DNA from: a virus
Lineage: Duplodnaviria; Caudoviricetes
Reading direction: 5' to 3' (one strand)
Length of the DNA stretch: 64,000 bases
IMG/VR virus record: IMGVR_UViG_3300042291_001013
Shown: positions 34,344 to 48,478 of the stretch, piece after piece
Layout: each line of letters starts with the position of its first letter
Numbering within the stretch: position 1 is the stretch's first letter
Made by a program: the position numbers and the translations under genes
Notes under the pieces: model-generated
What the model saw: only the letters and a program-made list of their open reading frames with translations
The model's database searches: none
What the model was told of the DNA's origin: nothing

Positions 34344-35630
34344 TTAGTATCTATAGGTGTCGGGTTTGTACGGGCCGTCAACTGTGACACCAATATACGC
34401 GGCCTGCTTGAGTGTCATTGCAGTGAGCTCCGCACCAATCTGCTCCAGATGTAGTCGTGCAACTTTTTCATCCAGGTGCTTGGGCAACAGGTACAGTCGA
34501 CCTGTTTCGTATCGACTGGTGTTGGTGTAAAGATCAATTTGTGCCATGACTTGGTTGGTAAAACTGTTACTCATCACAAAGCTGGGATGGCCAGTGCCAC
34601 AACCCAAGTTAACCAGTCTGCCTTCTGCTAGCAAAATAATACGTTTGCCACTGGGGAAAATAACATGGTCCACTTGTGGCTTGATGTTTTCCCACTCACA
34701 GTCCTTGATACCTGCAACATCAATTTCAGTATCAAAGTGACCAATGTTACACACAATAGCATTGTTCTTCATGGCGTCCATGTGTGCGCGAGTGATAACA
34801 TCTACGTTGCCAGTGGCAGTTACAAAGATGTCACACTTGTCTGCCGCGTATTCCATTGTGACCACACGATAACCTTCCATTGCCGCTTGCAGGGCACAGA
34901 TAGGATCTGCTTCTGTAACCCAAACTTGTGCAGAGAGTGCTCGCAGAGCTTGTGCAGAGCCCTTGCCCACGTCTCCATAGCCGGCTACCACTGCAACCTT
35001 ACCGGCAATCATGACGTCAGTGGCACGTTTGATAGCGTCTACAAGACTTTCTCTGCAACCATACAAGTTGTCAAACTTGGTCTTGGTTACAGAATCGTTT
35101 ACATTGATAGCAGGCATCCGCAGTGTGCCAGCCGCAATGCGCTCTAGTAACTTGTGAATACCTGTTGTGGTTTCTTCTGTGACACCTCGGATACCAGGAA
35201 CTAGATCAGGGTGTTTGTCATGGATGTACCCAGTTAAGTCATGTCCATCATCAAGGATCATGTTGGGAGTCCAACCATCTGCACCACGCACAGTCTGCTC
35301 AATGCACCACCAGTATTCCGCTTCTGTTTCGCCCTTCCAAGCAAAAACAGGAATACCTTTTGCAGCCAAAGCAGCCGCGGCTTGGTCTTGTGTGGAGAAG
35401 ATGTTGCAACTACTCCAACGCACACTAGCACCAAGTTCAATTAGTGTTTCGACCAGCACAGCCGTTTGAATGGTCATGTGCAAACTGCCCACAATACGTG
35501 CGCCTGCCAAGGGCTTTGAGCCAGCATACTCACGACGGATTGCCATCAAGCCAGGCATTTCGTGCTCGGCGATAGCAATCTCTTTGCGGCCCCAATCTGC
35601 AAGGCCAATATCTCTAATTTTGTAATCCAT
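34344..35630 (-). CDS. ahcY: Adenosylhomocysteinase (SAH hydrolase)
   Basis: [40 protein letters not shown]; start MDYKI at 35630. Confidence 0.97.
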
Positions 35631-35631
35631 G

Positions 35632-35895
35632 TTACCTCGATTCTTTGTATCTACGTCGCGGTTCGATATCAATTTCTTTGTACAGATAATCTCTAGTGAC
35701 GTGTCCAGCTTCAATTTCCAGCAGTGCTGTTACTGCATGATTGTGCTTGATAGCACTGGCAATTTTTGGCATATCGCCTCGACCCAATTCTCGCATGCGA
35801 CGAGCGCCTACTAGTACCAAATCGTATCTATTTCCAATTGCTTCCACAGCGAGTTCGCTTGTGAGCCCAGCAGTTTCAGGTGTGGTCATATTCAT
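35632..35895 (-). CDS. rpoZ: RNA polymerase omega subunit homolog
   Basis: [30 protein letters not shown]. Confidence 0.75.
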
Positions 35896-36197
35896 GTTAG
35901 ATCCTTAGGGTTGATTAATCCATTACTGTGCTTGTCTTTGATCTTGTCAAGATCTTGGAACAAACGTTTTTCTTGTTGCGTCAATTTATCCTTGTGCGTT
36001 TTGCGAGGATTTCCACACAAATAACATTTTGGATTACCACAATCCATAGCATGGTGTTTGGCCAAGCGATGTGTTTGTTTGATATTGAGCTCATTGAATG
36101 AACTATGACTCTTGGCAATTTTAACTTGCCTTGAAATCGCAACATCAGTTTTGTGGCGTCTACGTGAATTAATAAATTTTGCTAGATCGTTACTCAT
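35892..36197 (-). CDS. Basic hypothetical protein with Cys/His cluster
   Basis: HHAMDCGNPKCYLC; TAAATA 5 nt before ATG 36197. Confidence 0.7.
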   Translation of the reverse strand: MSNDLAKFINSRRRHKTDVAISRQVKIAKSHSSFNELNIKQTHRLAKHHAMDCGNPKCYLCGNPRKTHKDKLTQQEKRLFQDLDKIKDKHSNGLINPKDLT

Positions 36198-36222
36198 ACA
36201 GTTATTTAATTGTGTAGAACTT

Positions 36223-36251
36223 ATTATAGCAAGTTCTACACAAAAGGTCAA
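36223..36251 (-). promoter_or_regulatory. Promoter TTGACC-17-TATAAT
   Basis: Direct match upstream of the rpoZ-ahcY block; TAAATA at 36203-36208. Confidence 0.85.
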
Positions 36252-36754
36252 TTGTTTAGAACACGAGCAACACTAGTAATTACCGCCGCAATTCGCCCAA
36301 TATCGCGAAGTTGTTCTACGGTGTAGCCTTCTGTCTTGAGTGTTTCGTAGTGTGCCTTGACACAGAAATGGCACTTGCCCACAATTGACGCTGCCAAACT
36401 AAATGCTTCAAAATTTGCTTTAGTTGTGCCACCATGACTTGCAATAGCATTCATACGCAACTGCGCTGGCAATCCTTTAAGGGCAGGATCATCTGCCATT
36501 TCAACGTAGGGATACCATACGTTGTTCTGTGCCATGATGCTGGCCGCTGTCATTGCTGACTCTGCGTGAACAGGAGCATCTGCCAACAACACCGCAAGTA
36601 CCTTGCCGTTGCCAGTTGCAGCCAGCGCGGCCACAGCACAACCCATGGCCACATCTGCATCTAGTGTACTACGAAGTAGCACAGCGTCAAGATTTAACTT
36701 GGTGTCTTTTGCGTAGTCTGGCAACGCACCTTTTACTGATTCAATAAAACTCAT
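36248..36754 (-). CDS. ahpD: Alkyl hydroperoxide reductase AhpD (CMD family)
   Basis: LPDYAKDTKLNL, MAQNNVWY, CHFCVKAH. Confidence 0.9.
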   Translation of the reverse strand: MSFIESVKGALPDYAKDTKLNLDAVLLRSTLDADVAMGCAVAALAATGNGKVLAVLLADAPVHAESAMTAASIMAQNNVWYPYVEMADDPALKGLPAQLRMNAIASHGGTTKANFEAFSLAASIVGKCHFCVKAHYETLKTEGYTVEQLRDIGRIAAVITSVARVLNN

Positions 36755-36755
36755 T

Positions 36756-37406
36756 TTAATATTTTCCTGATGCTAATACGATTTGACAAATGTGTTCCAA
36801 TCGTTCAATATGTTCAAATGCTCGCCACGGGCTGGTGTCAATAGCAACAACACCGTGTCCTTTGATGCCCACAATGTCATACTCAATATTACCAGCATCG
36901 TCCAACTGCAAGTTCCTGTGGCACTCATCGCCCAGTTCTTGACTAATTGGGGCCACATCACCAACATTAGGTGCCACCCGAGTATAACGACTGAGTTCTG
37001 GAAAGTCGTTAGCAAGACTACTTAACTCAATGCCACGATGCATGGCAGCAACACAGTAGGTAGGATGTAAGTGAACTACCACCCTAACATCTGTACTGTG
37101 CTGACCCATTGCTCGTTGTAGTCCAAAGTGTAAGGGAATCTCTCCACTAGGCTTTAGATTAGTACTGATGTCTGTGTAGAATTCTTCTTCCCAAGATTTA
37201 GATAGGAAAGGTGGAATGGCACTAATCTTGTCAATCAATTTAATTTTCTTGAACTGATCCGGTTGCATTGTTTGCTTGCGAACGCCACTGGGTGTGATAT
37301 AAAAGTGATCACGGTCGTGATGACGAATACTAACATTGCCATCACGACTGGTAATCCAGTTGCGTCTATATGCTTCGACTAATGTGTCGCATATAGTTTC
37401 TAACAT
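36756..37406 (-). CDS. Class II aldolase/adducin family protein
   Basis: GNVSIR, ITPSG, KPSGE..H, HLHP, GHG. Confidence 0.85.
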   Translation of the reverse strand: MLETICDTLVEAYRRNWITSRDGNVSIRHHDRDHFYITPSGVRKQTMQPDQFKKIKLIDKISAIPPFLSKSWEEEFYTDISTNLKPSGEIPLHFGLQRAMGQHSTDVRVVVHLHPTYCVAAMHRGIELSSLANDFPELSRYTRVAPNVGDVAPISQELGDECHRNLQLDDAGNIEYDIVGIKGHGVVAIDTSPWRAFEHIERLEHICQIVLASGKY

Positions 37407-37963
37407 TACAGAGTCTCGCCACCAACTGTGCGGTTACAAGCACATAGTTCGCCAGTTTGTAACGCATCTAATACACGAAGTGTTTCTTCTGGGCTACGAC
37501 CCACGTTCAAGTTGTTGACAGTAACGTGTTGGATAACGTTGTCTGGGTCAACGATGAATGTAGCACGTAATGCCGCCCCTGCTGGAGCATAGAACACGCC
37601 TAGCTGTGCAATCAAACTCAAGTTGTCGCCAGTTTCTGGATTGTAACGCTGTGTGTCAGCAAACTGGTTGTGTGTGATCTTGATCAAGTCACTGTGGCTC
37701 TTTTGCCATGCTACTTTACAAAACTCATTGTCTGTGCTTCCTGTGAGCAATACTGCATCACGGTCAGCAAAGTCACTTGCTAGTTTGTCATAGGCTACAA
37801 TCTCTGTAGGACAAACGAATGTAAAGTCCTTTGGGTAGTAAACAATTATTTTCCACTTGCCTTCAAATGACTTTTCTGTAATGTCAAAGAAAGCATCTTC
37901 TGGCTGTCCTGGCTTGACACCTGTAACCACAAACGGTTCTAACTTATCACCAACTGTTTTCAT
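37406..37963 (-). CDS. ahpC: Peroxiredoxin
   Basis: YPKDFTFVCPTE, GRSPEE, GELCAC. Confidence 0.95.
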   Translation of the reverse strand: MKTVGDKLEPFVVTGVKPGQPEDAFFDITEKSFEGKWKIIVYYPKDFTFVCPTEIVAYDKLASDFADRDAVLLTGSTDNEFCKVAWQKSHSDLIKITHNQFADTQRYNPETGDNLSLIAQLGVFYAPAGAALRATFIVDPDNVIQHVTVNNLNVGRSPEETLRVLDALQTGELCACNRTVGGETL

Positions 37964-39514: not shown

Positions 39515-39606
39515 TGGCGGAAGACGGAGGAGTCGAACCCCATCCCTGTTAAGAGAACCTGGTTTTCAAGGCCAGTCGCGGGACCAACCCCACTGCATCA
39601 TCTTCC
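39515..39606 (-). tRNA. tRNA-Ser(UGA), probable 8/4 fold
   Basis: Loop CTTGAAA; GGAAGATG/CGTCTTCC acceptor; 4-bp T-stem; long variable arm; G73. Confidence 0.85.
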
Positions 39607-40704: not shown

Positions 40705-40779
40705 TGGTAGCCATGGACAATTTCGAAATGTCGACCTAACGCTTATCAAGCGTTTGCTCTTCCTCTGAGCTACACGGCT
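40705..40779 (-). tRNA. tRNA-Ile(GAU)
   Basis: Loop TTGATAA. Confidence 0.88.
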
Positions 40780-40788
40780 AAATATTGA

Positions 40789-40962
40789 ATGCACATTGAC
40801 GTCTATCTACAAAAACAGTTGTACTGCACCATTGAACTAAGTCAGCCCGGTTACAATGTGCCTGCTATCTTGGATCAAATCCAAAGTGATCGCGAAGCTG
40901 GCAACTTGACCTGGGTACAGTGGGATCAGCCGCTTGACTTTGAAGTCAAATACTTTGAATAA
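40789..40962 (+). CDS. 57-aa antisense-oriented protein MHIDVYLQKQ...
   Basis: Fills an inter-tRNA spacer exactly; TAAATA 4 nt before ATG. Confidence 0.6.
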   Translation: MHIDVYLQKQLYCTIELSQPGYNVPAILDQIQSDREAGNLTWVQWDQPLDFEVKYFE

Positions 40963-40964
40963 CT

Positions 40965-41038
40965 TGGCACGGGAACTAGGGCTCGAACCTAGAATGACAG
41001 AGTCAAAGTCTGTAGTGTTACCATTACACTATTCCCGA
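40965..41038 (-). tRNA. tRNA-Gln(UUG)
   Basis: Loop CTTTGAC; 1-72 mismatch; G73. Confidence 0.92.
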
Positions 41039-41046
41039 ACAAAACT

Positions 41047-41121
41047 TGGTGGATGTAAGTAGATTCGAACTACTGACCTGCCGCGTATGAAGCGAATGCA
41101 CTACCGCTGTGCTATACATCC
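41047..41121 (-). tRNA. tRNA-Met(CAU), probably elongator
   Basis: Loop TTCATAC; G1-C72; Met versus Ile2 is an inference. Confidence 0.75.
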
Positions 41122-41124
41122 GAT

Positions 41125-41199
41125 TGGGGTATCCAATGAGAATTGAACTCATGATAGCGGAATCACAATCCGCGGTTTTACCACTAAACTATGGACACC
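41125..41199 (-). tRNA. tRNA-His(GUG)
   Basis: Loop TTGTGAT; G-1 opposite C73. Confidence 0.93.
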
Positions 41200-41200
41200 A

Positions 41201-41314
41201 TATAGGAGCACTCTCAACAGCAGGCCTAGGAGGCAATCTGGTTGCTGAAACTTTTGCATCTGCAGATACTAGGCTTCTTCTCCCGCGTTGACTTACGCCA
41301 AGAATGCTTTTATA
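41201..41314 (-). ncRNA. Stem-enclosed structured spacer RNA
   Basis: 12/14-bp closing stem; GNRA (GUAA) hairpin; GCCTAG/CTAGGC helix. Confidence 0.5.
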
Positions 41315-41388
41315 TGGTAGGGGTGTTCGGGAACGATCCGAATTTTACTGGTTAAAAGCCAGTTACTTCACCTTAAAGTTTCACCCCC
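41315..41388 (-). tRNA. tRNA-Lys(UUU), non-canonical core
   Basis: Loop CTTTTAA; A8/U14 and A54/U58. Confidence 0.85.
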
Positions 41389-41417
41389 ATAGGTTTATCA
41401 CTCTTGTCACTAGTCAT
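41373..41417 (-). CDS. 14-aa mini-ORF MTSDKSDKPMGVKL overlapping the tRNA-Lys 5' end
   Basis: AAGGAG 7 nt upstream of ATG. Confidence 0.4.
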   Translation of the reverse strand: MTSDKSDKPMGVKL

Positions 41418-41439
41418 GACAGATCTCCTTTTAAAAAAT

Positions 41440-41516
41440 TGGTACCACCTGAGAGATTCAAACTCCCGACCCCTAAGTTCGTAGCCTAGTGCTCTGTTCA
41501 GCTGAGCTAAGGTGGT
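41440..41516 (-). tRNA. tRNA-Arg(ACG)
   Basis: Loop CTACGAA; T-loop TTTGAAT. Confidence 0.88.
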
Positions 41517-41520
41517 GTGT

Positions 41521-41596
41521 TGGTGCCCCTTGTCCGACTCGAACAGACCACCTACTGCTTACAAAACAGTTGCTCTACCGGATGAGCTAAAGGGGC
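41521..41596 (-). tRNA. tRNA-Thr(UGU)
   Basis: Loop TTTGTAA. Confidence 0.92.
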
Positions 41597-41603
41597 AAAT
41601 TGT

Positions 41604-41693
41604 TGGCGGTGCGAAAGAGACTCGAACTCTTAAAGCGGCTTTCACCACTCGACGGATTAGCAATCCGCTCCAATACCATTATGGGACCGCACC
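41604..41693 (-). tRNA. tRNA-Ser(GCU)
   Basis: Loop TTGCTAA; long variable arm; 7/5 fold. Confidence 0.92.
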
Positions 41694-41700
41694 TCAAATT

Positions 41701-41776
41701 TGGCTCCCCAGCGTGGGATCGAACCACGGACACCTTGATTAACAGTCAAGTGCAACTACCGCTGTGCTACTAGGGA
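41701..41776 (-). tRNA. tRNA-Asn(GUU)
   Basis: Loop CTGTTAA. Confidence 0.93.
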
Positions 41777-41786
41777 ATAATCTACT

Positions 41787-41808
41787 TAGTAGGCACTCAT
41801 GCCTACTA
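41787..41808. other. Perfect 9-bp spacer hairpin
   Basis: TAGTAGGCA-CTCA-TGCCTACTA. Confidence 0.7.
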
Positions 41809-41817
41809 TCAAAAACT

Positions 41818-41894
41818 TGGCGACCCGGGAAGGATTTGAACCTCCGACATTTGGTTTTGGAGACCAACGTTCTGCCAGACTGAACTACCGAGCC
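41818..41894 (-). tRNA. tRNA-Trp(CCA)
   Basis: Loop CTCCAAA; G73. Confidence 0.92.
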
Positions 41895-41899
41895 ATATT

Positions 41900-41974
41900 T
41901 GGTGGAGGATAAGAGAATTGAACTCTTTTGACCTACGTGCAAGGCAGGCATAATACCCAGTATATGAATCCCCC
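41900..41974 (-). tRNA. tRNA-Ala(UGC)
   Basis: Loop CTTGCAC; G3-U70. Confidence 0.9.
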
Positions 41975-42004
41975 AAATTTTCAAACACACTGTTTCCAAT
42001 GTGT

Positions 42005-42060
42005 GTATTAAAGCACTCTAAAATACTTAGGCTGCCTGTTCGTAAAGAATGCTTTAATAC
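42005..42060 (-). ncRNA. 15-bp processing-type stem in spacer
   Basis: GTATTAAAGCATTCT pairs with AGAGTGCTTTAATAC. Confidence 0.6.
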
Positions 42061-42156
42061 GCTGTAATTTTTTATCTCACAAAAGAGACTCTATCCTACA
42101 GGCCGCCCATTTGTAGTTTAGAGTGATACCGGCTCTCGTTGCCATTGCACTAAATG

Positions 42157-42185
42157 AAAAACCCTGGAGTGTTTAGTTCCAGGGT
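42157..42185 (-). terminator. Intrinsic terminator of attenuator B
   Basis: ACCCTGGA-9nt-TCCAGGGT followed by TTTT. Confidence 0.85.
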
Positions 42186-42208
42186 CTTGTTGAATTTGTC
42201 AGTTACTT

Positions 42209-42343
42209 TTATGCGTAACCTGCACCTTCAATAGACCCCGACATCCCTAGAATACTATTCACGCGACCAGAGGCGTGTGACCAGGTAAATGTTGCCTGGA
42301 GCATCGCGGGTTTTGTCGACAGTGAACGGAATGTTGTTTTCAT
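42209..42343 (-). CDS. 44-aa leader peptide B (MKTTFRSLST...GAGYA)
   Basis: Promoter and AGGA RBS upstream; stop sits in the loop of the putative antiterminator. Confidence 0.65.
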   Translation of the reverse strand: MKTTFRSLSTKPAMLQATFTWSHASGRVNSILGMSGSIEGAGYA

Positions 42344-42353
42344 CTTAAGTCCT

Positions 42354-42382
42354 ATTGTAGTTTATTTATGATTGTTTGTCAA
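42354..42382 (-). promoter_or_regulatory. Sigma70 promoter TTGACA-17-TACAAT with embedded TAAATA
   Basis: Direct sequence match. Confidence 0.85.
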
Positions 42383-42491: not shown

Positions 42492-42567
42492 TGGAGTAGG
42501 TGACAGGACTCGAACCTGCATTTTACGGATTTGCAATCCGGCGCCTAACCATTCGGCACACACCTAC
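42492..42567 (-). tRNA. tRNA-Cys(GCA)
   Basis: Loop TTGCAAA; U73. Confidence 0.88.
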
Positions 42568-42577
42568 ACTAATTGAA

Positions 42578-42790
42578 TTTGCAAGTAGTTGCTCCATCGT
42601 TATAGCAACCATTCACCCGTGTAATAAACTCGAGCGGGACTCGGTACGTCACTTGGGATACTAGTCCAGTTTGTCTCCGTTACAGACACCACCCTTGCGA
42701 GTGGTTGGGAGTTGAACCCATCACCTTCTACTGTTTTGGTCCTTCGAAGAAACCTAGACAGCATGACATTCTCTTGCTGACACTTACAAA
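42578..42790 (-). ncRNA. Unassigned ~210-nt structured RNA with a T-arm-like hairpin
   Basis: 10-bp terminal stem TTTGTAAGTG/TACTTGCAAA; TGGG-TTCAACT-CCCA; several internal hairpins. Confidence 0.65.
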
Positions 42791-42793
42791 ACT

Positions 42794-42868
42794 TGGCGAT
42801 GCATGGGAGAATCGAACTCCCGTCTCCGGATAGACAATCCGGGATAATGACCATTATATGAATGCACC
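42794..42868 (-). tRNA. tRNA-Asp(GUC), canonical core
   Basis: Loop TTGTCTA; G73. Confidence 0.9.
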
Positions 42869-43813: not shown

Positions 43814-43881
43814 CAAAATTAAATTTTTAACGAACTCCAAAGTAGCTTCGATCAACTGTCTTTGTTTTCTAACTTGTATCT

Positions 43882-43910
43882 AGTATAACATCTTGTGCTA
43901 TTCTGGTCAA
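43882..43910 (-). promoter_or_regulatory. Sigma70 promoter TTGACC-17-TATACT
   Basis: Direct match upstream of the ncRNA/tRNA block. Confidence 0.8.
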
Positions 43911-43920
43911 CTTGTTTTGT

Positions 43921-43945
43921 AAAAGCCCCGCCTTGTTGCAGGGTC
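43921..43945 (-). terminator. Second terminator-like hairpin below attenuator A
   Basis: CCCTGC/GCGGGG followed by CTTTT; also preceded by AAAGAC. Confidence 0.55.
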
Positions 43946-44021
43946 TTTACAAACTTTGCTGTGTTACTTCCTAACTAGTCTCTAGTATAACATGATTCCA
44001 ATTCTTTGCCTAACACATAAA

Positions 44022-44045
44022 GAAAAACCCTGCTCGGTGCAGGGT
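44022..44045 (-). terminator. Intrinsic terminator of attenuator A
   Basis: ACCCTGC-ACCGA-GCAGGGT followed by TTTT. Confidence 0.85.
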
Positions 44046-44069
44046 CTTTGTAGATGTAGTACGAAATAC

Positions 44070-44156
44070 TTACACACAAAGACCCCGAGATGGATCATAC
44101 TCACGCTCGCATGTGAATGCCATTGAATTGAGGATGATTGCGAAAGTTTGTTTCAT
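44070..44156 (-). CDS. 28-aa leaderless leader peptide A (MKQTFAIILNSMAFTCEREYDPSRGLCV)
   Basis: ATG 6 nt after TATAAT; last codons carry the anti-terminator strand. Confidence 0.65.
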   Translation of the reverse strand: MKQTFAIILNSMAFTCEREYDPSRGLCV

Positions 44157-44162
44157 AAGTGT

Positions 44163-44191
44163 ATTATATATGACAGCAGACAAAAAGTCTA
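44163..44191 (-). promoter_or_regulatory. Sigma70 promoter TAGACT-17-TATAAT
   Basis: Direct match; predicted +1 at the A of the leader ATG. Confidence 0.75.
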
Positions 44192-44204
44192 CTGTTTTGG
44201 TAAA

Positions 44205-44545
44205 ATTGGATAGGTTTATTCTGTTACGAGGAAAACCTATCAAAACCCTAGGCAGTGTTTAGGCTGCCAATGCGAACTGTTCGTCGTTTGCGTTTACGTT
44301 TTTTGCTTCTACGACCGGGAAACCCCAACCCTACGGCTTTCACATTGCCGAGCTGTCCACTCTGTTACTCTTTGCCCTGTCGAAACCATGGCAGGCCCAT
44401 TATAAAACATACTCAAACGGGTCTTTTCGCCTATCCCCGTGCCGTGGCTTGCAAGGATAGGGCTGAATATGCTTTATGGTGGACCTGGCGGGAGTCGAAC
44501 CCGCGTCCAGAACACTTTTCTCTTTGCTTCATACAGCAATAACCT
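44205..44545 (-). ncRNA. ssrA: Circularly permuted (two-piece) tmRNA, tag ANDEQFALAA
   Basis: Acceptor piece ending GGTTCGACTCCCGCCAGGTCCACCA (44477) precedes the 5' piece GGGCCTG (44398); G3-U70; tag at 44259-44291. Confidence 0.95.
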
Positions 44546-44547
44546 AT

Positions 44548-44576
44548 ATTATATTAGGCTTTCTGAATTTTGTCAA
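44548..44576 (-). promoter_or_regulatory. Consensus promoter TTGACA-17-TATAAT for tmRNA
   Basis: Perfect consensus. Confidence 0.9.
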
Positions 44577-45498
44577 CCAAACCGGCACTGAATGTGTTGG
44601 CAAATTGATCATATACTTTGGCAGTTACCTTGCGAAAAGTTTGCTCATCAGCATCGCTAAATTTAATAACACGAATGCCATCTTGCTCACAACGTGCCTT
44701 GGTAGGCTCAACTTCGGCCACAGCCACAGCACGCTCAAAACGTCCAGCTTCTAATGCCGCATCTTTCATGACCTGTTGCAGGTCTGCAGACAAGCCAGCC
44801 AAGAAGTTCTTGTTCACAATGATGTTAGTCAACAACAAGCGATGGTTGGGTTCCAAGATAGATTCAGCAACTTCGTTTTGTTGGCAAGCATAGATACGTG
44901 GCCATGAGCTTTCGCCGCCATCAATAGCACCATCTCGGATGCCTTCGGCCACACGTTCAACGTCCATCACAACTGGATCAGCGCCCAGGGCAGTCCATGT
45001 AGCGGCTGCAACTGGTGAATTTGACACACGCACTTTAACGCCGGCCATTTCACTTAGACTTGCAACGTCACGATTCATGGGCATGTTCATAAAGCCACCT
45101 GAGTAGGTAAATGCCATGCCTTTGATGTTGCTGTTCTTGGCGTAACCATCCAGCAAACTCTCGCCAATTTCACTTTCAAACACACGTGCCGCGTGATCGT
45201 GATCACGGAACAAGAAAGGCAAATCAAGTGCGTCAAGATCATTGTTGTACTTGCTGAGTACATAAGTGTACATCTGGCTCATTTCAATAGCGCCAGTGTC
45301 CATAACATCCAACAGGTTATGTTTGGTGATTGGTTCACCATGATTGTACTTGCTGGTATACTCGCTTAGAGTCAGCACTTCAATCTCAAACTGTCCTGGT
45401 GCACGGGCTTCTACTACTTCAGTAAATTTTTCAGCGGCACGAATAAAAATGTCAATAGGTTCATGGGCTAATACCCATTTGATGTGGATAGGTTTCAT
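44554..45498 (-). CDS. TRAP transporter substrate-binding protein (DctP family), no visible signal peptide
   Basis: LDLPFLFRD, GVKVRV, LGADPV, IDGGE; start may be 45528. Confidence 0.85.
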   Translation of the reverse strand: MKPIHIKWVLAHEPIDIFIRAAEKFTEVVEARAPGQFEIEVLTLSEYTSKYNHGEPITKHNLLDVMDTGAIEMSQMYTYVLSKYNNDLDALDLPFLFRDHDHAARVFESEIGESLLDGYAKNSNIKGMAFTYSGGFMNMPMNRDVASLSEMAGVKVRVSNSPVAAATWTALGADPVVMDVERVAEGIRDGAIDGGESSWPRIYACQQNEVAESILEPNHRLLLTNIIVNKNFLAGLSADLQQVMKDAALEAGRFERAVAVAEVEPTKARCEQDGIRVIKFSDADEQTFRKVTAKVYDQFANTFSAGLVDKIQKA

Positions 45499-45683
45499 AA
45501 TATTTTTTCCTTGAGTAATAGCTTGCATGTGTATGCTACGGTGGGCGTTCTAGGTATTGTGCTAGTAAAGGGCATTGCCCAAGCGTCCATTATTTCCGAC
45601 GTCAGCCCCTGCTGGCGTTGCTAGAATTATTTAGCTTTTGCAAGCGTCTTGTATAGCATTTTTAAGGCATTAGTGCGCAATTG

Positions 45684-46868
45684 TTAAAATTTAAAATGAT
45701 TGTTGATACCTGAGCTTTCAAAGTCAGCTTCGCCCAGGTAATAAAAGGGTGATAAAAACCCCACAAAGCCAACTGCTTGCCCCATTTCTCTGTTGAAGTA
45801 CTTGCTGTCAATAGTTTTTACTAGATGTGCAAGACCCGCTTGCCATTTGGCATACTGTGCAGTTTCTTTAAAGTTGGTATAAAACCAATGATCCATCTCG
45901 TTGTAAAAACTGTTGGTTGGTTTACTGGTCTGGAATGTTTCTTGATTGTACTGTGGGTAGATTAACGGCTTGATCAAGTGCTCGTATGTTGTTCGATGGG
46001 TGTAGCTGTAGTTTGGCCAACGGCACACATACTGCATGTGTTTGTTGTGCTCTAGCATAAACCAGTTCTTGACCATGTGGCATTGTTTGATAAACATCTC
46101 TGGCAAGTCAGGCGTCCAATAAAAATATTCGTTGGTCATGTTGGTATAATCACCAAAATCACCCATGCTATGATTGGCCATAACATCAATAAAGTAAGCG
46201 TACCACTTTTTGTCCTTGATGCATAGCTTGGGCTTGTCTACCCCGTACAAGATGCAAATGCGTTGACCAGTGTCTGCTAGCTTTTTGTGACCTACATAGC
46301 CTGTAGCTGAGTGCTTGAACGCATGTCCAGGTTGGAAATAATCTTTAGTTTTCATAACCCAAGATTCATCATACACTTGAGTTAACATGTTTTCACTGTA
46401 GTCGTGCATGGTAATTTTTGTGCGAGGTGAAGCAGTGGTCAACCAGTTCAGCACAGGATATGCCGCATAACGTGCTTCGCTTAGAGTGTTCTCAGGTTTG
46501 CAGTTAAACGGATCGTCGCTAACATCTTTCTCACCAGTCTTGGGATATCGAAAAACAACCTCATCAAGGTGTATTCCGTTGTTGATAAAGCTATACAATG
46601 CTGTAGTCGAATCTCCCCCACCAGAAAATTCTAAACGAATGTAATCGTACTTGTCCCGTAATTGTTGCGCACGAATTCGATACAGGTCTAGGATATTGAT
46701 ATTGGGTTCAACTAGCCAATTTTCGGCACCAAATATTTCGTTGCTGAAATTCCATTCGGGAAACTGATTGGTTTCTGTTGCCTTGGTCAGTGCCATGGGC
46801 TTGCTAAAAAACTTTTCAGTTCCTACAGTGTAGTACCCCAACTTGGGGTTTTGTTCAATCTTGATCAT
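45684..46868 (-). CDS. PP-loop (adenine nucleotide alpha hydrolase-like) protein
   Basis: DKYDYIRLEFSGGGDS. Confidence 0.6.
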   Translation of the reverse strand: MIKIEQNPKLGYYTVGTEKFFSKPMALTKATETNQFPEWNFSNEIFGAENWLVEPNINILDLYRIRAQQLRDKYDYIRLEFSGGGDSTTALYSFINNGIHLDEVVFRYPKTGEKDVSDDPFNCKPENTLSEARYAAYPVLNWLTTASPRTKITMHDYSENMLTQVYDESWVMKTKDYFQPGHAFKHSATGYVGHKKLADTGQRICILYGVDKPKLCIKDKKWYAYFIDVMANHSMGDFGDYTNMTNEYFYWTPDLPEMFIKQCHMVKNWFMLEHNKHMQYVCRWPNYSYTHRTTYEHLIKPLIYPQYNQETFQTSKPTNSFYNEMDHWFYTNFKETAQYAKWQAGLAHLVKTIDSKYFNREMGQAVGFVGFLSPFYYLGEADFESSGINNHFKF

Positions 46869-48478
46869 TGTGAGGTTCCAAAAAAGTTGTTGTACCAGTT
46901 GTTGGCTGACTGTGCATGCTTGGCTTGTATTTTATTTTTGCTGTTAAAGTAGTCAAAAAAGTTTATGGCCAGTTGTTCAGTTTCGTTGTCAATGTCTATT
47001 TGCCAGGGCAGATCTATGCCATAGTACATGGCCATGTTTGCTAAAGGACCTTGATACCAAAAGTGCTGAAGTTTATCATTATAGTGTCGTCTTGATTCAG
47101 ACACAACAGTGTCCTGCAGCCATTCCTTGATGCAAAGCTCTTGACCAACAGAATTCATCAATTGCCAGTATGGAGTATCGTTTTTTGGCGCTAGATACAT
47201 ACCAACTTGAATACGTTTCAGCACGTCATTATTGATGTTGTTAACAAACTGATTGTACGAATCTTTCCAGTCAAACGTTCGATCATGATCCTGCTTGATG
47301 TAATCAACCAATTGATTAATAAAAGCCAACTGAGTTGAAAATCCATTGGCGTCATATACGTCAGTAAACCCGCTGGAGATACCCAGCGTCACACAATTAG
47401 CCACAAATGTTTGTTCAAAGAATCCGGCCTGCCAAGATATTTTTCTTTTGATTGCACCCTTCATCCACGGGAACCGCTGATCAAACTCGTCAATCAACTG
47501 CTGTTCATCAGTAGTAAAGTTTTTGTTGTACACATAACCATTGCCACTGCGCCCTGGTTGTGGCAGACCAAACACCCATCCTTGACTCATGGCATAATGT
47601 CTGGACACACAATCTGATGGATTTTCTAGATCATGACGATTTGGTCCCTGCCCAACTATTGCGGCATTGTTAATAGTATCTTCAACCGGACGCCAACGAA
47701 ACGGTACAAACTGCGAAAACAATCTCTTGAACCCGGTACAGTCAACAAACAGATCTGCATGCACCTGTGAATCGTCTTCACCTACTAGGTGAGTAACTCT
47801 GGTCCCATCAAACACCACATTCTTAATTCGCAGAGCTTGAACTTTGACTCCGCAAGGAATGCCCACGCTTTCGTGAATTACGTCTTTGACATAATCAGCA
47901 TTGAAATGAAAACTTGAAACCAATCGCTTCTGTGGCAGATGCTGTTTGTTCATGATTGTTTTGTAATAGCTATACCAATAGCTTTCGCTTAGGTCGCCAG
48001 CCCTGTTTTCATTTTTACGCAGTCCTTTGTTGTATAGGTGTAACCATACGTCCCACAATGTGTATTTGTCATCTTCGGCACCCGATGCTGGACCCAGAGG
48101 TTTTGTTCTATGCCCATAGGTGTCTGTTATAGATTGTGTAATTATCTTGGCACTAGGATTCCACTGGAATCCAGAGACCATGGGTGTCTCGGTGCCATCA
48201 AATCCAAAAAATGCCACACCATACTTGTAGCTAGAATTTGATTTTTTCATCCAGTCATAAGAGCTCTCGTCATCAATGCCAAACAGTTTGCGCATAACAT
48301 CACGACAGTTAAACGCAATGCTTTCTCCGACACCGATGTAAGGAGTGTTGGGATCATGTACAATAGTCACATCAGTTCCTGGACAATTTCTTTTTATGGC
48401 GGCGGCTGCAAAATATCCAGCGGCTCCGGCGCCCACAATCACAACTTTGAGTGGCTTGGCTTCAGCATTTTTTATCAT
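46865..48478 (-). CDS. Flavin-dependent tryptophan-halogenase family protein
   Basis: VGAGAAG, IGVGES, FVDCTGF, GWVFGLP (WxWxIP-like). Confidence 0.8.
   Translation of the reverse strand: MIKNAEAKPLKVVIVGAGAAGYFAAAAIKRNCPGTDVTIVHDPNTPYIGVGESIAFNCRDVMRKLFGIDDESSYDWMKKSNSSYKYGVAFFGFDGTETPMVSGFQWNPSAKIITQSITDTYGHRTKPLGPASGAEDDKYTLWDVWLHLYNKGLRKNENRAGDLSESYWYSYYKTIMNKQHLPQKRLVSSFHFNADYVKDVIHESVGIPCGVKVQALRIKNVVFDGTRVTHLVGEDDSQVHADLFVDCTGFKRLFSQFVPFRWRPVEDTINNAAIVGQGPNRHDLENPSDCVSRHYAMSQGWVFGLPQPGRSGNGYVYNKNFTTDEQQLIDEFDQRFPWMKGAIKRKISWQAGFFEQTFVANCVTLGISSGFTDVYDANGFSTQLAFINQLVDYIKQDHDRTFDWKDSYNQFVNNINNDVLKRIQVGMYLAPKNDTPYWQLMNSVGQELCIKEWLQDTVVSESRRHYNDKLQHFWYQGPLANMAMYYGIDLPWQIDIDNETEQLAINFFDYFNSKNKIQAKHAQSANNWYNNFFGTSQ

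Follow-up and report, generated by a model that had tools for sequence, protein, structure and literature searches.

A putative ribosome-coupled transcription attenuator preceding a tRNA operon in a lake jumbo phage

We propose that an element of less than 250 nt, on the minus strand at positions 42157-42382 of a 64,000-nt stretch of phage DNA (IMG/VR virus record IMGVR_UViG_3300042291_001013, Duplodnaviria; Caudoviricetes; hereafter the window), is probably a ribosome-coupled transcription attenuator heading a phage tRNA operon, as judged from its sequence and that of its relatives. The window is part of the genome, more than 300 kb long, of a lake jumbo phage, and it carries 29 tRNA genes and a two-piece transfer-messenger RNA (tmRNA). 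In the element, called attenuator B (attB), a sigma-70-type promoter is followed by a short leader open reading frame (ORF), by two segments, S2 and S3, that can pair into an antiterminator helix (P2), and by an intrinsic terminator whose 5' arm begins within S3; a spacer RNA and 11 tRNA genes lie downstream. Since dozens of related phage contigs have this module in front of tRNA arrays, tRNA supply is probably tied to lagging ribosomes, the phage making these tRNAs when ribosomes fall behind. A first-pass annotation, made from the letters of the window alone, had described the promoter, the 44-codon ORF, the terminator, the antiterminator pairing and an inner helix, and all of them are present at the minus-strand positions it gave. 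The 11 tRNA genes that it saw downstream were likewise recovered and, as it had stated, there is no promoter-like site matching at least 10 of the 12 consensus positions on the minus strand between 42157 and 40697; no strong promoter or terminator was found inside the 11-tRNA block.

In the mechanism that we propose, the strong sigma-70 promoter would begin the RNA at the first codons of the leader ORF, so that the message would be leaderless or nearly so. Behind the polymerase, S2 (GGGGUCU...) and S3 (...AGACCCU) would form P2 and sequester 6-11 nt of the terminator 5' arm. A ribosome moving abreast of the polymerase would melt S2 and park at the stop codon, which lies at the apex of P2 some 26 nt upstream of the terminator stem; with the ribosome parked there P2 could not close, S3 would pair with S4, and transcription would stop at the U tract. 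If the ribosome were absent, lagging or stalled early, P2 would form first and pre-empt the terminator, and the polymerase would enter the spacer RNA and the 11 tRNAs. The net effect would be that poor translation leads to more phage tRNA. Termination efficiency would be expected to change with ribosome position, and general stalling or an anticodon-nuclease defence may be the physiological input.

P2 and the terminator compete for one strand, GACCC(U/C). In the window the antiterminator strand GGGTCTATTGAA (42238-42227) is complementary to TTCAACAAGACCC (42194-42182), which overlaps the 5' arm of a terminator whose core consists of ACCCTGGA (42185-42178), a 9-nt loop, TCCAGGGT (42168-42161) and TTTTT to 42157. 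S3 is the strand used by both structures, and across the family P2 and the terminator arm overlap by the same 6-11 nt. Covariation was assessed on a model-based alignment of 34 distinct sequences, in which P2 is 83% paired, 7 of its pairs are changed on both sides, and none of 500 shuffles matches its covariation score; the pairing collapses when the partner strand is slid. The terminator, an 8-11-bp GC-rich stem followed by a U tract, is 98% paired with three compensated pairs. A column shared by both helices forms GU (17), AU (10) or GC (6) with its P2 partner and UA (24), CG (6) or UG (4) with its terminator partner, and is thus pairable in 33/34 and 34/34 sequences, respectively. In the divergent copy L049:5757-5840, where S3 has G for A and GACCC has become GCCC, both S2 (GGGC) and S4, the terminator 3' arm (GGGC), are changed to match. 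The complementarity of S2 and S3, the ORF and the terminator are hence all kept in relatives with compensatory changes, as would be expected from the first-pass proposal.

The two structures are also balanced in predicted energy. When P2 and the terminator are forced in turn, their energies are nearly equal, with a mean difference of 2.3 kcal/mol toward P2, which is favoured in 26 of 35 elements. Folding of the two states, a check that the first-pass annotation had called for, predicts each of them: a window transcript that ends before S4 forms the complete P2 (-28.1 kcal/mol), and the window RNA from which the ribosome-covered 5' part is removed forms the terminator (-23.1 kcal/mol). Ribosome-free folds retain P2. 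The element as a whole folds better than shuffled controls (z of -3.4 to -4.4, with 0-1 of 200 shuffles equalling it). Covariation and folding together point to an antiterminator that uses the terminator 5' arm and is mutually exclusive with the terminator.

The stop codon of the leader ORF tracks the terminator. It lies 26.5 ± 3.6 nt from the terminator arm, the conserved position that had been anticipated, whereas its offset from S2 is far looser (-5 to +34 nt, standard deviation 9.1) and the distance from S2 to S3, i.e. the length of P2, is also loose (standard deviation 8.5). It is always inside or just before P2. Given the established size of the ribosome footprint, a ribosome parked at the stop codon would cover the apex or the 5' strand of P2 and end about 10-14 nt before the terminator stem, a placement that would block P2 and leave the terminator free.

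The family to which the element belongs has at least 35 distinct members, found in contigs of uncultured freshwater phages; all of them lie inside tRNA arrays, on the same strand as the tRNAs and upstream of them. A first two-anchor motif scan returned 35 loci, mostly chance matches, and gave the first true homologs, L019 and L006; members were gathered in four ways, by a switch-motif scan, a covariance model, an ORF-anchored scan and a protein search. The switch motif GGGGTCT...AGACCCTG...GGGTTTTT, taken from both copies in the window, matched 15 IMG/VR loci where about one was expected by chance, and all 15 are true family members. The covariance model recovered further, more divergent copies. 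The ORF-anchored scan, which is unbiased with respect to the switch because it is anchored inside the ORF only, yielded 7 loci in viral contigs and 22 real ones in metagenomes, and the protein search gave eight "hypothetical proteins" with 80-93% identity to the leader peptide. The DNA runs that contain the stretch are lake-water metagenomes. A scan of prokaryotes with the switch motif (one genome per species, 185,579 species) found two chance matches with no tRNAs nearby, and a BLAST search of the element with its surrounding 20 kb against 50,697 phage records recovered no close cultured relative, the matches all being of tRNA size. One relative reached through a neighbouring protein (L001) was dropped as too divergent and not syntenic.

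The leader ORF appears to be translated and maintained by selection. Its ATG frame is open as far as S2 in 33/33 distinct elements, as against 2/66 for the other two frames; the length differences among orthologs are in-frame indels, and the stop codons are TAA or TGA. Nearly all members have the ATG 6-12 nt past the -10 hexamer, and they share no conserved Shine-Dalgarno site. In the window this distance is 11 nt, so that an AGGA upstream would be absent from transcripts of this promoter and the ORF would be leaderless or nearly so; that AGGA, at whose site TACAATAGGACTTATGATG is present in most attB-type orthologs, may be usable as a Shine-Dalgarno sequence only on transcripts entering from the upstream tRNA-Cys/Met genes. 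In one ortholog (L051) a leader of about 50 nt replaces the leaderless start, and AAGGA stands 7 nt before the ATG. These properties of the ORF argue against a very improbable explanation, namely that the terminated transcript of about 190 nt is a trans-acting small RNA in which the ORF is incidental. A strong promoter, a well-folded RNA (z = -3.4) and an intrinsic terminator would suit such a molecule, and attenuator-derived small RNAs are known (rnTrpL, PMC6614838); an incidental ORF, however, would not be expected to stay open in one frame only, to change length by in-frame indels or to gain a Shine-Dalgarno site. Furthermore, the ORF portion is uncovered in three of four lake metatranscriptome runs and is covered in the fourth by a contig of a divergent relative only, although the spacer is covered, and no Rfam family matches the RNA.

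The first-pass annotation had expected a divergent peptide and had noted that it lacks a run of any one amino acid. The latter is the case, as 18 different amino acids are used, and the peptide does differ between subfamilies. Within the orthologous group, however, the core AWSRGF..VNSIPG..GS is kept across 25 orthologs while third codon positions vary synonymously, which indicates that the peptide sequence itself is constrained. The RNA is constrained as well. Gly codons elsewhere in the ORF vary freely among orthologs, as at Gly34, where GGG, GGA, GGC and GGT all occur; the one that falls within S2 is GGG in 24/25 of them, a difference that indicates constraint at both the peptide and the RNA level. 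The ORF moreover traverses the conserved GGGGTCT in all three frames, depending on the subfamily, and a motif kept whatever the frame should be constrained as RNA.

The retained core, with its synonymous variation, could alternatively mean that the locus is a self-standing early gene for a micro-protein and that its terminator is an ordinary one, its peptide of 37-46 amino acids acting in trans (e.g. in tRNA metabolism or host take-over), P2 merely stabilizing the 3' end, and the tRNAs being expressed by fixed leakage or from an unrecognized phage promoter. Homologs of the leader are indeed called as hypothetical proteins in many contigs, and the copies of a second type described below are followed by promoters of their own. 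We nevertheless consider this unlikely, since the peptides of the subfamilies are unrelated in sequence and length (23-46 amino acids) although the RNA motif is kept in three frames, and the GGG codon in S2 is frozen beyond the needs of the peptide. A gene of this kind would also not account for the strand common to P2 and the terminator, for the near-equal energies of the two or for the preservation of pairing in both as their sequences change, or for a stop codon whose spacing follows the terminator; the peptide, in addition, has no family match in Pfam and no match in PHROGs better than E = 0.38.

Peptide conservation might also be explained by the same switch operating as an arrest-peptide sensor, in which the conserved peptide (W..x10..PG) would slow elongation or release from within the exit tunnel on a specific signal and would not report how fast translation runs in general. 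The orthologous group retains an invariant Trp 11-12 residues ahead of Pro-Gly, a spacing reminiscent of TnaC and SecM, and a ribosome held at Pro-Gly would, from the coordinates, reach S2. This spacing between Trp and Pro/Gly is not retained in other subfamilies, however, the copy in the window has Leu where the orthologs have the Pro of Ile-Pro-Gly, and the peptide contains no known arrest motif. The Ile-Pro/Leu-Gly codons form a segment, S1, which in most orthologs is ATTCCAGG, and the conservation of these nucleotides is equally explained at the RNA level: S1 is nearly identical to the terminator 3' arm and, in the model, can extend the antiterminator. A peptide-specific sensor is accordingly quite improbable in our estimation, though less so than the small-RNA explanation.

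Under the proposed attenuation, transcription of the tRNAs would proceed through the terminator into the spacer RNA. The spacer starts about 7 nt after the T tract and contains, in order, H1 (GTG..GGC-AACGAGA-GCC..CAC), a GGGCGG motif, H2, H3 (GTATTAAAGCA/TGCTTTAATAC) and H4 (ACACACATTG/CAGTGTGT). Compensatory changes affect 18 of its 34 pairs, and the hairpin loop AACG(A/C)G is invariant. Equivalent spacers are found in L019, L048, L052, L054, L038 and L049, and they also follow leaders of other peptide types; Rfam holds no match to this RNA. The terminator is separated from the first tRNA, which is Ala or Trp, by 173-260 nt, and no sigma-70-like promoter of at least 10/12 was detected there, in the window or in about 20 orthologs, so that the internal promoter named by the first-pass annotation as a refutation did not appear. 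The absence of a sigma-70 promoter past the terminator, together with a conserved RNA directly after it, implies that read-through must occur. Two candidate promoters were set aside: a 9/12 site, TACACA-17-TAAAAT, in the spacers of some orthologs overlaps H4 and would initiate inside the tRNA, and the post-terminator motifs do not recur across the 64-kb window as a class of phage promoter would.

Some relatives carry an ORF directly past the terminator and before the tRNAs (L046:10476-10650; L040 at about 3849-3694, minus strand; L072; L050; L049:5850-6012; and L006:1835-1988). These ORFs have a strong Shine-Dalgarno sequence and encode helical proteins of 51-60 amino acids, rich in Lys, Glu and Arg, that share the pattern L(T/S)xEQK...(F/I)(D/E)RA(R/K); a PHROGs search with them gave nothing significant.

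Several points weigh against ribosome-coupled attenuation as the function of the element. Many of the orthologs are close kin, so the counts given above exceed the number of independent events. An ORF that only delivers a ribosome needs no conserved peptide, so the peptide itself may have some separate function. The local hairpins predicted on the upstream side of S2 are inconsistent among orthologs, and a search of the orthologs for a consistent pause hairpin upstream of GTGAATAGTATT found none. The minimum-energy fold of several members joins the terminator 3' arm to an upstream segment, which could in principle still work as a long terminator hairpin. Copies of the second type have promoters of at least 10/12 past the terminator (e.g. 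TTGACC-17-TATACT), and the tRNAs there should not depend on read-through alone. A phage-specific, non-sigma-70 promoter may be hidden in the ORF or terminator region. Finally, contigs from lake metatranscriptomes, derived from relatives, bridge the terminator and H1 of the spacer and thereby lend weak support to read-through, as contigs from RNA libraries cannot give transcript ends or levels and may include DNA carry-over.

As for the information that the leader might convey, its codons include one for every tRNA of the downstream block (coverage 12/12, p about 0.02), and the cognate fraction is 0.53, compared with 0.42 under the null (p = 0.08); the match is mostly non-significant in other subfamilies, and the notion that leader codons spell out the downstream tRNAs is weakly supported. 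Individual loci offer an anecdotal hint that leader codons follow tRNA content. L063, with ..CQPQAW.. in its leader, has tRNA-Pro(UGG) in its block, whereas L052, with ..CQAQAW.., has no tRNA-Pro in its called block; leaders with ..HAYGR.. (L053-L056) stand before blocks that contain tRNA-Tyr.

A wider interpretation, which we offer tentatively as possible rather than likely, is that jumbo phages of one freshwater clade have a dedicated "coupling sensor" in which the ribosome on a leaderless mini-ORF races the polymerase and must win if a terminator is to close, and impaired host translation switches on the tRNA arrays and the four-helix RNA. The impairment might be tRNA cleavage by anticodon nucleases, starvation, or a shortage of ribosomes late in infection. 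The phage tmRNA close by and a leader codon for every tRNA of the block suggest that the whole could constitute a self-regulating viral translation-rescue regulon.

Table 1. Features of the attenuator module, its downstream genes and its paralog in the window.
Feature	Position	Strand	Description
Sigma-70-type promoter	42354..42382	minus	TTGACA-17-TACAAT, 11/12 consensus match; same promoter type in most family members; promoter spacer carries CATAAATAAAC, common to most family members
AGGA	42350..42353	minus	6 nt 5' of ATG, upstream of the likely start site of the promoter
Leader ORF	42209..42343	minus	44 codons + TAA; ATG begins 11 nt past the -10 hexamer
S1	42246..42253	minus	ATTCTAGG; near copy of terminator 3' arm; can pair with CCTGGAA of S3
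S2	42227..42239	minus	GGGGTCTATTGAA; 5' strand of P2, within the ORF, codons Ser-Gly-Ser-Ile-Glu
P2 apical hairpin	42201..42220	minus	GGTTAC/GTAACT; loop contains stop codon TAA (42211-42209)
S3	42181..42194	minus	TTCAACAAGACCCT; 3' strand of P2; its GACCCT also begins the terminator 5' arm
Intrinsic terminator	42157..42187	minus	Stem AGACCCTGGA/TCCAGGGTTT, 9-nt loop ACTAAACAC, T5 tract
Four-helix spacer RNA	41975..42156	minus	Between terminator and tRNA-Ala
11 tRNA genes	40705..41974	minus	Ala, Trp, Asn, Ser(GCU), Thr(UGU), Arg(ACG), Lys, His, Met, Gln, Ile
Paralogous module, attenuator 2 (att2)	44023..44191	minus	TAGACT-17-TATAAT, leaderless 28-codon ORF (44156-44070), P2 CGGGGTCTTTGT/ACAAAGACCCTG, then terminator

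The second copy in the window, attenuator 2 (Table 1), is directly 3' of the two-piece tmRNA, and further promoters lie between it and tRNA-Glu. The tmRNA itself (44171-44590, minus strand) is circularly permuted, is detected by both ARAGORN and Rfam (tmRNA_permuted, 123 bits; beta_tmRNA, 112 bits) and encodes the tag ANDEQFALAA; at its 3' end it runs into the promoter of attenuator 2, and the relative L048 likewise has a permuted tmRNA. Next to attenuator 2, two tandem promoter-like units with a common ATGTTATACTAGA occupy 43860-44012 (minus strand), and a hairpin between them, GTAAAGACCCTGC...GGCGGGGCTTTTAC, reuses the switch motif AAGACCCTG.

Other features of the tRNA region were also observed. 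The interval 42572-42780 (minus strand), between tRNA-Asp (42794-42864) and tRNA-Cys (42492-42567), stands out for its summed contig depth, which for most bins is 1,000-80,000 in three of the four lake metatranscriptome runs and far lower in the fourth; the neighbouring tRNAs reach a depth of only about 10-100. Some 96-nt RNA contigs are identical to the window here, and the contigs diverge at 42662 and 42706. ARAGORN calls no gene in this interval, and Rfam gives nothing beyond a tRNA-Sec-like match of 15.8 bits on the T-arm. The interval could represent an unannotated, tRNA-like RNA of very high abundance or else a stretch common to abundant cellular RNAs, the latter option arising because of the divergence of the contigs. 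In the interval between tRNA-Pro and tRNA-Val, positions 39519-39606 (minus strand) resemble tRNA-Sec at 36.9 bits, below the gathering threshold of 47, and are not called by ARAGORN; a tRNA with an unusual long arm may lie there. On both sides of the tRNA region (34344-37963 and 44554-48478) there are metabolic-looking genes unusual for a phage, which include S-adenosylhomocysteine hydrolase, a class II aldolase, an AhpC/TSA peroxiredoxin, a DctP-type solute-binding protein and a tryptophan-halogenase-like flavoprotein.

The reasons why phages carry tRNA genes, and how the tRNAs are dosed, have been debated for decades. Current ideas include codon compensation and escape from tRNA-targeting defences (PMC10264068), both of which are silent on how phage tRNAs are regulated. 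If the proposal is true, it would be the first described cis-regulatory logic for viral tRNA genes. Leader-peptide attenuation, so far a matter of amino-acid and synthetase genes, would then reach the tRNAs as well, and the module would provide a compact, portable sensor of ribosome performance. Leader-ORF attenuation as such is known, and what would be new here is its application to viral tRNA arrays: in agreement with the first-pass annotation, full-text literature searches returned no description of attenuators upstream of phage tRNA genes. The consensus sigma-70 promoter and the small size of the module should make it testable in E. coli, or cell-free, with no need to grow the host of the phage.

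Compared with known systems, the module is most like the amino-acid operon attenuators of Proteobacteria (trpL, hisL, leuL, thrL, ilvL and pheL), in which a short translated ORF is followed by a terminator, the terminator 5' arm alternatively pairs with a segment in or beside the ORF, and a ribosome that terminates at the stop codon is positioned to block the antiterminator and spare the terminator. It is unlike them in that the regulated genes are tRNAs rather than enzymes, there is no regulatory codon run, the ORF is mostly leaderless and the peptide is conserved among orthologs. It also has no clear 1:2 pause or anti-antiterminator hairpin, so that the ribosome-free default would be read-through and not termination. 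The established trp/ilv geometry that the first-pass annotation had ascribed to the element therefore did not hold: no 1:2 pause hairpin can be demonstrated, and the predicted ribosome-free state is the antiterminated one. Among the leaders and riboswitches of Rfam, the sole match is to Thr_leader, at 16.1 bits against a gathering threshold of 55 (E = 3.5), and it covers the terminator region only. The module would thus work like the trp/his class without being a member of it.

Coupling to translation by other means offers further parallels. The E. coli pyrBI leader also depends on coupling: how far the leading ribosome trails the polymerase decides the outcome, and a close ribosome there prevents the terminator; the logic is opposite in the phage element, where a close ribosome is predicted to permit it. 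The orf12 leader of tet(M) in Tn916 and the Salmonella mgtL/mgtP leaders resemble the phage element in responding to the overall progress of ribosomes on a short ORF and not to one amino acid, and in selecting on that basis among RNA structures that let transcription go on or end it; they differ in having other structures, cellular hosts and other cargo, and none is known to govern tRNA genes. Translation-linked control of transcription is described for the Salmonella mgtCBR leader (PMC3641672). T-box riboswitches, for which Rfam gives no match at this element, likewise link read-through to the state of the tRNA pool, but they bind uncharged tRNA directly, contain no ORF, and control synthetase and amino-acid genes.

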